Shown one piece after another: positions 18,346-18,505 of a stretch of DNA of 64,000 nt. The translations under genes and the position numbers were made by a program. The stretch is from Escherichia coli. Its GTDB lineage: Bacteria > Pseudomonadota > Gammaproteobacteria > Enterobacterales > Enterobacteriaceae. Position 1 is the first letter of the stretch, and each line of letters opens with the position of its first letter. The DNA lies in assembly GCF_013315695.1 (NCBI RefSeq), contig NZ_CP054353.1; one strand, 5' to 3'. Under the pieces are notes generated by a model. That model saw nothing but the letters and a program-made list of their open reading frames with translations, did not search any database and had not been told where the DNA came from.

Positions 18346-18505
18346 GCATGGTGAATCCCCCTGTGCGGAGGGGCAATCAGCGAGTAGGTATATGGGATAA
18401 TCGCGGATTCAGGTGCTGGTACTGAATTCACCGGGAGGCACCCGGCACCATGCAATGGCACATAGCGCCACTCTCCAGCCCCTCTCCGGAGGGGCTGTTT
18501 ATATT
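18346..18505 (+). ncRNA. GC-rich multi-hairpin element ending in an intrinsic terminator (candidate structured RNA)
   Basis: A closing helix GCATGGTG (18346-53) pairs with CACCATGC (18446-53). Inside it are three hairpins: 18358-73, 18405-29 and 18431-45. A terminator follows: CAGCCCCTC-TCCG-GAGGGGCTG plus TTTATATTGATTTT (18476-18505). Confidence 0.4.

Follow-up and report, generated by a model that had tools for sequence, protein, structure and literature searches.

What is encoded by the GC-rich segment at positions 18346-18505 (+) of a 64,000-nt stretch of the Escherichia coli contig NZ_CP054353.1 (GCF_013315695.1)? This whole stretch is referred to here as the window, and all window coordinates refer to it. 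A prior interpretation made from the nucleotide sequence alone (referred to here as the sequence-only reading) described the segment as a discrete structured non-coding RNA (ncRNA) element with an intrinsic terminator, likened its geometry to that of attenuators and riboswitch-like leaders, and could not assign it to a known RNA family. Our data indicate that the segment is a full-length representative of STnc100 (Rfam RF02076), a prophage RNA family common in pathogenic E. coli, and that its 5' core contains a conserved pseudoknot that is missing from the Rfam model. Furthermore, comparison with relatives suggests that the element may act as an Hfq-dependent small RNA (sRNA), a reading that we weigh below against a function residing in the core itself.

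The element is a full-length member of STnc100

An Rfam scan of the whole window assigned 18317-18506 (+) to RF02076 with a score of 132.4 bits (E 7e-29), which exceeds the gathering score of 47 bits and covers the full length of the model (1-206/206). The closing helix, hairpins, and terminator of the Rfam consensus structure are identical to those of the window element, i.e., a closing helix around a CCCCC/GGGG hairpin, a variable hairpin, and a CCGGG-AGGCA-CCCGG hairpin, followed by an intrinsic terminator. The location is also that of the family, a (pro)phage accessory position between Q with its late promoter and the lysis genes. The inability of the sequence-only reading to name a family is resolved by this match, and its description of a discrete structured ncRNA that ends in a terminator is borne out by the Rfam match, the fold, and the covariation presented below. 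The element itself is an already catalogued RNA family, and its detection in the window is a rediscovery.

Other Rfam families gave only sub-threshold noise between 17200 and 19300. The prophage RNAs AsxR and AgvB (RF02703 and RF02702) had no match in the window at the gathering threshold, nor around the element at E up to 5. Identity with a tRNA or a fragment of a known gene had been named as an outcome that would overturn the sequence-only reading, and the tRNA detectors are blank at the element. ARAGORN finds four tRNAs elsewhere in the window and none at the element, and the Rfam tRNA model, applied to 17200-19300 at E up to 5, returned two genuine tRNAs and otherwise none.

We found that a 211-nt query matches 2859 of 5426 complete E. 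coli genomes, in up to 12 places each, with 2150 records at 99% identity or higher. The element also matches 284 phage records, chiefly those of Shiga toxin (Stx)-converting phages. The RefSeq/PGAP annotation contains no ncRNA at the element and places a partial 'hypothetical protein' pseudogene on the minus strand at window 18336-18461 (locus L001, 6037-6162). This opposite-strand pseudogene is likely an annotation artefact that is systematic across thousands of E. coli genomes.

The 5' core is a five-helix fold locked by a pseudoknot

Our data show that the core is a compact fold of five helices (P1, P2, Px, P3, and P4) locked by a junction-to-loop pseudoknot, and that a tail and a terminator follow it. 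The GC content of the element is 57.5% compared to 32-46% in its flanks, in agreement with its first description as GC-rich sequence embedded in AT-rich DNA. The minimum free energy (MFE) of 18346-18505 is -69.5 kcal/mol compared to -56.0 +/- 4.4 kcal/mol for dinucleotide shuffles (z -3.08; 0 of 200 shuffles were as good). The MFE structure is that of the covariation model, and it reproduces the helices of the sequence-only reading. The 8-bp closing helix, in which GCATGGTG at 18346-53 is the exact reverse complement of CACCATGC at 18446-53, stands exactly where it had been placed. The three hairpin stems enclosed by it are also present at their proposed positions (CCCCT/AGGGG at 18358/18369, GGATTCAG/CTGAATTC at 18405/18422, and CCGGG/CCCGG at 18431/18441), with one correction. 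Rather than CCCCT/AGGGG, covariation favors a register of the first hairpin, P2, that is shifted by one base and pairs 18357-61 with 18367-68 and 18370-72, leaving A18369 bulged.

Read from its 5' end on the plus strand, the element begins with the P1 5' strand GCAUGGUG (18346-18353), which covaries with its exact complement, the P1 3' strand CACCAUGC (18446-18453), and pairs with it in the MFE fold. A near-invariant linker, AAU (18354-56), leads into the P2 hairpin CCCCC..GG.GGG (18357-18373), which has a conserved loop U-N-N-G-C and double-sided changes at four of its five pairs (CG to GC, UA, or AU). The Px 5' strand GC (18373-18374) pairs with GC at 18403-18404, as indicated by RNAalifold and by pair counts. 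The third Px pair, A18375/C18402, is mismatched in the window copy and occurs across homologues as GC (48), AU (23), CG (23), and UA (23). The pseudoknot 5' strand AUCAGCG (18376-18382) pairs with UGCUGGU at 18414-18420, which lies in the 9-nt loop of the P3 hairpin (GGAUUCAG/CUGAAUUC, 18405-18429). P3 is evident from the sequence, the MFE fold, and covariation, and it is the most variable helix, with heavy covariation and up to six pair types per position. The P4 hairpin CCGGG-AGGCA-CCCGG (18431-18445) abuts the P1 3' strand and falls within the near-invariant stretch UCACCGGGAGGCACCCGGC; compensated variants of P4, such as CCUGG/CCAGG, are rare. Conserved nucleotides at the junction are AAU, GCG, and CA. 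A variable 3' tail (18454-18475) follows the core and is mostly single-stranded in the MFE fold, with a small 4-bp hairpin; it is a candidate seed region.

Homologues were collected with the exact 21-mer CACCGGGAGGCACCCGGCACC (18429-49), which is present in at least 120 IMG/VR viral contigs and, among the genomes of GTDB species representatives, in at least 120 stretches from across Enterobacterales (Escherichia, Salmonella, Klebsiella, Enterobacter, Citrobacter, Kosakonia, Pantoea, Erwinia, Rahnella, Serratia, Buttiauxella, and other genera). The sequences around this block are highly divergent among homologues. RNAalifold applied to 43 non-redundant cores recovered P1, P2, and P4 together with Px, a short new helix. 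A covariance model built here from the alignment of these 43 cores (model R1) found 152 copies in 100 genome loci. Covariation was scored over 28 pairs in an alignment of 144 distinct rows that was fitted to the covariance model itself. Standard pairs fill 94.5% of pair cells compared to 77.7% in shuffles, and 23 of the 28 pairs show double-sided changes. The covariation score is 0.462 compared to 0.145 in shuffles (0/500), and slid controls score 0.02-0.08. P1 covaries among CAU/AUG, UGU/ACA, CGU/ACG, GAUG/CAUC, and GGCG/CGCC, including at its GGUG/CACC heart. Covariation, which the sequence-only reading had proposed as a check on its helices, strongly supports them across Enterobacterales.

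The exact 21-mer was also found in four assemblies from outside Enterobacterales, namely Streptomyces (L165), Vagococcus (L191), Prolixibacteraceae (L135), and Mucilaginibacter (L172). Full-length core matches occur in L135, L172, and L191 and not in the Streptomyces assembly. These matches probably represent contaminating enterobacterial or phage contigs rather than true hosts.

In nearly every variant, a stretch located 1-6 nt 3' of P2/Px is complementary to the P3 loop, and both strands differ completely among variants. The window duplex AUCAGCG/UGCUGGU is replaced elsewhere by CCAGUC/GACUGG, CUGGUGU/ACACCGG, AAGGUUG/CAACCUU, or AGACUGACAAA/UUUGUCAGUCU. Among 57 non-redundant viral variants, a junction forms a helix of 6 bp or more with its own loop in 84% of cases compared to 25% for cross-variant combinations. 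Across 132 genome variants, the mean length is 6.49 bp for own pairs compared to 5.00 +/- 0.10 bp with permuted loops (0/5000 permutations; z approximately 15), and these variants contain 110 distinct duplex sequences. The pseudoknot replaces a small local helix of the MFE fold, GCGA/UCGC. The Rfam STnc100 model contains neither the pseudoknot nor Px, and it begins approximately 30 nt upstream of P1. This conserved loop-to-junction pseudoknot is undescribed in the literature that we searched.

A putative promoter and an intrinsic terminator bound the element

We found that sequences immediately upstream of P1 resemble a promoter. In the window, a putative promoter at 18310-18339 (+) is composed of a -35-like TTGTCT (18310-15), an 18-nt spacer, TG at 18331-32, and a -10-like TAAAAG (18334-39), which predicts a transcription start at about 18345-18347. 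E. coli-type copies, including the window copy, have in common the motif TTGTTAAAA located 6-9 nt before P1, and we infer that it is an extended -10 element. Other variants carry a near-consensus sigma-70 promoter, TTGACA-17-TAAATT, that ends approximately 6 nt before P1. When strict criteria were applied, a promoter abuts P1 in 13 of 143 copies compared to 1 of 446 control positions.

Variants that predict hemolytic uremic syndrome (HUS) provide an additional line of evidence. These variants are a single-nucleotide polymorphism at +90 and a T deletion at +103 after stx2B (PMC12711010). In the VT2-Sakai copy, both fall in or adjoin the motif TTGTTAAAAAAATTTC just before P1 (L122 2503-2517; PMC12711010), and this motif is putatively the extended -10 element and discriminator of the sRNA promoter. 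The position of the variants is compatible with a promoter at this site and with transcription from P1 onward, the start that the boundaries drawn by the sequence-only reading imply.

At the 3' end, a terminator scan and the fold both recovered the proposed terminator, a 9-bp stem followed by a T tract at 18476-18505 (+). The stem CAGCCCCUC/GAGGGGCUG contains seven GC pairs, spans 18476-18497 with the loop UCCG, and is followed by TTTATATT, which is read in the RNA as the interrupted U tract UUUAUAUU. Under strict criteria, a perfect-stem terminator follows within 140 nt in 57 of 143 copies compared to 36 of 446 controls, and terminator starts cluster 12-37 nt past the core in homologues.

The open reading frames (ORFs) of the segment do not support a coding function. 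The sequence-only reading listed a 19-codon ORF as the only one; we found instead two frames, of which one is longer, begins at an ATG within the 3' strand of P1, and runs on through the terminator (46 amino acids in an E. albertii copy), and the other, of 23 codons, begins at a second ATG. Other variants conserve neither of these starts, as covariation gives their P1 the form CACCACAA, CACCGCAA, or others. Its broader conclusion that there is no convincing ORF holds, since no ORF is conserved in homologues, and a protein-coding role was rejected.

A sister class lies inside operons, and cores form arrays

The core is not confined to copies that Rfam recognizes. In a sister class that Rfam does not call, P2 is GCGGC/GC.CGC, fully compensated relative to CCCCC/GG.GGG, and P1, Px, P3, the pseudoknot, and P4 are in common with the STnc100 core. 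The window itself contains a sister copy at 6112-6253 (-), between DicF (6313-6262) and the dicB start codon (approximately 6086). This copy scores 68.6 bits (E 3.5e-17) with the covariance model built here and 34.4 bits with the Rfam STnc100 model, i.e., under the 47-bit threshold. Its P1 is extended to approximately 21 bp, its P4 is compensated to CCUGG-AGGCA-CCAGG, and its fold has a z of -5.2. It has no promoter of its own, and no terminator follows it. E. coli K-12 MG1655 carries the same element between its dicF and dicB, at 1649454-1649584.

Phage P1 carries a copy in its ban operon (NC_005856, approximately 70078-70204; L244 2501-2627), following a dicF-like region and tRNA-Asn/Thr and directly upstream of tciA. 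SfV-type phage carries a copy in the PL operon (L245 3501-3627), between two terminators and upstream of xis and int. Both copies are without a promoter of their own. In Pantoea and other genomes, two to three cores stand back to back with spacers of 7-52 nt and a single shared terminator, and a locus may contain up to seven core copies. Tandem arrays were found in Pantoea, Superficieibacter, and other genomes (L157 946-1989, L195 4134-5927, L180, L189, L147, and L155) and in viral contigs (L011, L020, and L061). Core copies often adjoin phage tRNA genes, and the organization of the arrays is reminiscent of tRNA gene clusters.

The dicBF literature consulted does not mention a core copy in the dicF-dicB spacer (bioRxiv 10.1101/2023.04.14.536235), papers on RNase III targets do not mention this spacer, and a literature search for the conserved sequence strings returned no match. 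The sister class, including its members in the K-12 dicF-dicB spacer and in phage P1, and the core arrays are undescribed in the literature searched.

A base-pairing sRNA with a conserved scaffold is the favored reading

Overall, we consider it reasonably probable that 18346-18505 is a stand-alone, Hfq-dependent prophage sRNA of approximately 160 nt in which the 5' scaffold is conserved and the 3' tail can be swapped. A weak extended -10 promoter would start transcription at P1 or just before it, and the terminator would end it; a transcription unit of this kind could allow the RNA to be made in a lysogen independently of Q. By analogy with relatives of the element, the 3' tail, terminator hairpin, and U tract would bind Hfq and pair with target RNAs in trans, with the short variable tail as the probable seed (PMC8550237, PMC7873438). 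The conserved 5' core would provide a structured scaffold in which the paired 5' end might protect the RNA, and the near-invariant P4 region is the probable site of contact with a conserved cellular partner. At least five unrelated tails occur on one core type, which suggests that tails are exchanged by recombination at the invariant block. Recombination that joins different tails to the same core could provide each prophage copy with its own target set.

Several observations weigh against this reading. Discrete expression, Hfq association, and targets are attributed to the window copy from its relatives only. The proposed -10 element does not end in the usual T, and the site is missing from the results of a promoter scan of the window. 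The U tract of the window copy is interrupted, and an interrupted U tract is suboptimal for Hfq binding in Hfq-dependent sRNAs. A simple scaffold needs no five-helix pseudoknotted core with approximately 18 near-invariant bases across Enterobacterales. Additionally, the core occurs without promoter or terminator inside operons (dicF-dicB, P1 ban, and SfV PL) and as back-to-back arrays, which suggests a function of the core itself that a base-pairing sRNA model leaves unexplained.

The interrupted U tract, the depth of conservation in P4 and its flanks, and the promoter-less and arrayed copies keep a rival reading open, one that we regard as possible yet doubtful, in which the conserved core is a functional autonomous RNA module and the sRNA tail is secondary. 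Such a module might bind a conserved protein of the host or phage, act as a sponge or decoy, be processed by RNase P or RNase III via tRNA mimicry, or cleave itself. It would account for a near-invariant UCACCGGGAGGCACCCGGC and conserved junction nucleotides amid helices that covary freely across many genera, for arrays of two to three cores that end in one terminator, and for the promoter-less copies before dicB and tciA. The 21-bp P1 of the dicB copy is long enough for RNase III, and several copies in enterohemorrhagic E. coli (EHEC) have high ribosome-footprint to transcript ratios (PMC5331693). In our own reading of the structure the core is cloverleaf-like, with a 7-bp P1 stacked on a 5-bp P4 as in the acceptor and T arms of tRNA, and copies frequently adjoin phage tRNA genes. 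However, neither ARAGORN nor the Rfam tRNA model recognizes the element, the P4 loop has 5 nt instead of the 7 nt of a T loop, and there is no conserved CCA end. For a P2-loop/P4-loop tertiary contact (GC/GC, and GU/AC in one variant type), support comes from three sequences only, too few variants for a judgment. The module has no known partner, and relatives behave like ordinary Hfq-dependent sRNAs both on Northern blots and in the ligation- and sequencing-based detection of RNA interactions (RIL-seq) (PMC8550237).

The remaining readings place the function in cis or in the DNA. In a cis-acting leader, attenuator, or riboswitch, exclusive pairings of GGUGAAU would decide whether the terminator forms, a layout that a folded domain followed by a terminator resembles and that the sister copies in the 5' untranslated regions of dicB and P1 tciA recall. 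The complementarity noted by the sequence-only reading is present, in that GGTGAAT (18350-56) is the exact complement of ATTCACC (18426-32) and a 4-5-bp version, GGUGA/UCACC, can form in most homologues, and it exists only because both segments are conserved. The mutually exclusive folds drawn from it are unsupported: in the 144-row alignment the alternative helix is paired in 82.0% of cells compared to 81.8% in shuffles (covariation 0.085 compared to 0.082), and at each GGU position the 11-14 sequences that differ are followed by the P1 partner and not by the alternative partner. Furthermore, the terminator lies 22 nt past P1 and shares no bases with it, so that no conserved exclusive pairing links a sensor to the terminator. 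The next gene downstream in the window is convergent, and therefore there is nothing to attenuate at this locus. Among 150 homologues the downstream ORFs are heterogeneous and unrelated (holin, outer-membrane-like, DicB, and TciA proteins), which also led us to reject a gene-specific riboswitch, and no known riboswitch model matches. We found no evidence for a switch by alternative pairing, and the attenuator-like geometry first proposed is improbable. We hold it very improbable that the nascent core binds RNA polymerase as a put-like processive antiterminator and drives read-through of the following and further terminators. The SfV sister copy does lie between two PL-operon terminators upstream of xis and int, a terminator stands immediately 3' of many copies, and RNA-only antitermination exists in lambdoid phages, as shown by HK022 (PMC9378689). 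However, HK022 itself has no motif within three mismatches and no match to our model, put has another architecture (approximately 70 nt and two stems; PMC9378689), relatives accumulate as discrete terminated sRNAs (PMC5331693, PMC8550237), and constitutive read-through here would proceed antisense into iraM and on into the lysis genes. Finally, the invariant 21-mer could be a DNA-level recombination joint or module boundary whose RNA has no function, given that many unrelated tails adjoin the same core, with the joint exactly past the conserved block, and that the block is identical across very divergent phages. This is hardly credible in view of the compensatory changes in four helices and the pseudoknot, which indicate that selection acts on a single strand in its folded form; the element is flanked by promoters and terminators, and relatives are expressed (PMC5331693).

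As a rediscovery, the assignment of the favored sRNA to STnc100 is of modest value in itself and confirms that a real, strongly structured RNA was picked out. The core raises a broader proposal, which we advance tentatively: the 5' two-thirds of STnc100 may be an autonomous, ancient module with a complex fold and a molecular function of its own, and STnc100/PasD may be one branch of a larger, unrecognized RNA class. If so, phages of Enterobacterales would deploy the module in three ways, i.e., as the head of an sRNA, in back-to-back arrays beside tRNA genes, and as a promoter-less operon insert, and its function might be to bind a conserved host factor, to be processed or serve as a decoy in a tRNA-like manner, or to cleave itself. 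The STnc100 family ranks with the most abundant sRNA annotations of bacterial genomes, adjoins Shiga toxin genes, and was recently tied to severe disease (HUS) through variants of its promoter region. The covarying pseudoknot, the Rfam-undetected sister class in K-12 dicF-dicB and P1, and the tandem arrays provide handles on the function of the core.

Prophage context of the element

The element occupies the late-region accessory ('moron') slot of a lambdoid prophage, in the order DUF968 protein, RusA, Q, terminator, tRNA-Met, tRNA-Arg(UCU), the RNA, an iraM-like gene, an esterase, holin, and lysozyme. The antiterminator Q is encoded at 16403-17224, a DUF1737/SASA (NanS-type) esterase at 19113-21089, and the holin at 21729-21998. 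The iraM-like anti-adaptor ORF (18532-18867, minus strand) is convergent with the RNA; it takes its name from the RefSeq annotation of an identical locus and has no Pfam match. This gene occupies the place held by the anti-sRNA AsxR in Stx2 phages, and AgvB or AsxR was not found as the convergent partner of window-type copies in five loci.

Directly after Q, a short region at 17225-17331 (+) ends in an intrinsic terminator (17305-17324) with a T run and has weak sub-threshold Rfam matches to Trp_leader (25 bits) and isrK (15.6 bits). This region probably represents the leader of the late promoter together with tR' and would correspond to lambda 6S RNA and StxS. At 13834-14158 (+), a 51-codon hok-type ORF follows a sok antitoxin RNA (106.7 bits), and the two constitute a hokD/sok type I toxin-antitoxin locus in the prophage. 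Rfam also identified DicF at 6262-6313 (-; 76.7 bits) and rseX at 58113-58203 (-; 90.8 bits), and tRNA genes are located at 680-755 (-; tRNA-Asn) and 1747-1836 (+; tRNA-Ser(CGA)). The prophage seems to be situated next to the gene for tRNA-Ser(CGA), presumably serU, in the E. coli chromosome, with host DNA resuming before rseX.

Comparison with known systems

The core resembles tRNA and tRNA-like RNAs (e.g., bacterial Y RNAs) in its multi-helix junction, its 7-bp helix on a 5-bp hairpin, its tRNA-gene neighbors, and its arrays; it differs in its short P4 loop, in having no CCA end, in its pseudoknotted 'anticodon' arm, and in being blank to ARAGORN and Rfam. HK022 put is likewise a folded RNA encoded by a phage, and its position can be upstream of terminators within early operons, but it has no sequence or structural similarity to the element (PMC9378689). 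Homology with put was rejected, as HK022 contains neither the 21-mer within three mismatches nor a match to model R1. IpeX of DLP12 was also rejected as a family member, with no 21-mer within three mismatches and no R1 match in NC_000913.3 570000-582000, the K-12 DLP12 region that runs from quuD via nmpC to essD. In the dicBF operon of the Qin prophage, a sister core copy lies between dicF and dicB in both the window and K-12 MG1655, and it differs from the element in its 21-bp P1, in the lack of a promoter or terminator of its own, and in its score below the Rfam threshold.

The published work consulted has characterized several relatives of the element, and it describes no mechanism or role for the conserved structure. 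In EDL933, 11 copies were reported; most of them have transcriptome reads, and a Northern blot confirmed one (PMC5331693). The RNA was also detected in outer-membrane vesicles of Shiga toxin-producing E. coli (PMC12370729). PasD1 and PasD2 of enteropathogenic E. coli E2348/69 have Hfq-dependent stability and RIL-seq targets (PMC8550237), and PasD was judged homologous to STnc100 (bioRxiv 10.64898/2026.05.13.724894). Like the window copy, they are located next to Q and sialate esterase genes and are reported structural homologues of STnc100 (PMC8550237; 10.64898/2026.05.13.724894). They differ in their seed regions and are too divergent for BLAST according to their authors; they were compared here by description only.

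AsxR and AgvB share the prophage locus but are other RNAs, encoded on the opposite strand. The 'dyads' formed by the Hfq-binding sRNAs EcOnc27 and AsxR between the late promoter and the lysis genes were described in at least eight Sakai prophages (PMC7873438), and AsxR is convergent with STnc100 in the VT2-Sakai dyad (PMC7873438). We found that the VT2-Sakai family member scores 207.7 bits, starts 75 nt after stx2B, and is convergent, tail to tail, with AsxR. EcOnc27, also named sRNA103, belongs to RF02076 and has the same closing helix, three hairpins, terminator, and position between Q with its late promoter and the lysis genes as the window element (PMC12711010, PMC12370729, PMC7873438). 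It is bound by Hfq in UV cross-linking and analysis of cDNA (CRAC) and is positive on Northern blots (PMC7873438, PMC12711010), and fimZ and espA transcripts increased when it was overexpressed (PMC12711010, PMC7873438). The Sp5/VT2-Sakai copy of EcOnc27/sRNA103 differs from the window copy in its 3' tail and in its convergent partner, which is AsxR in the former and the iraM-like gene in the latter.

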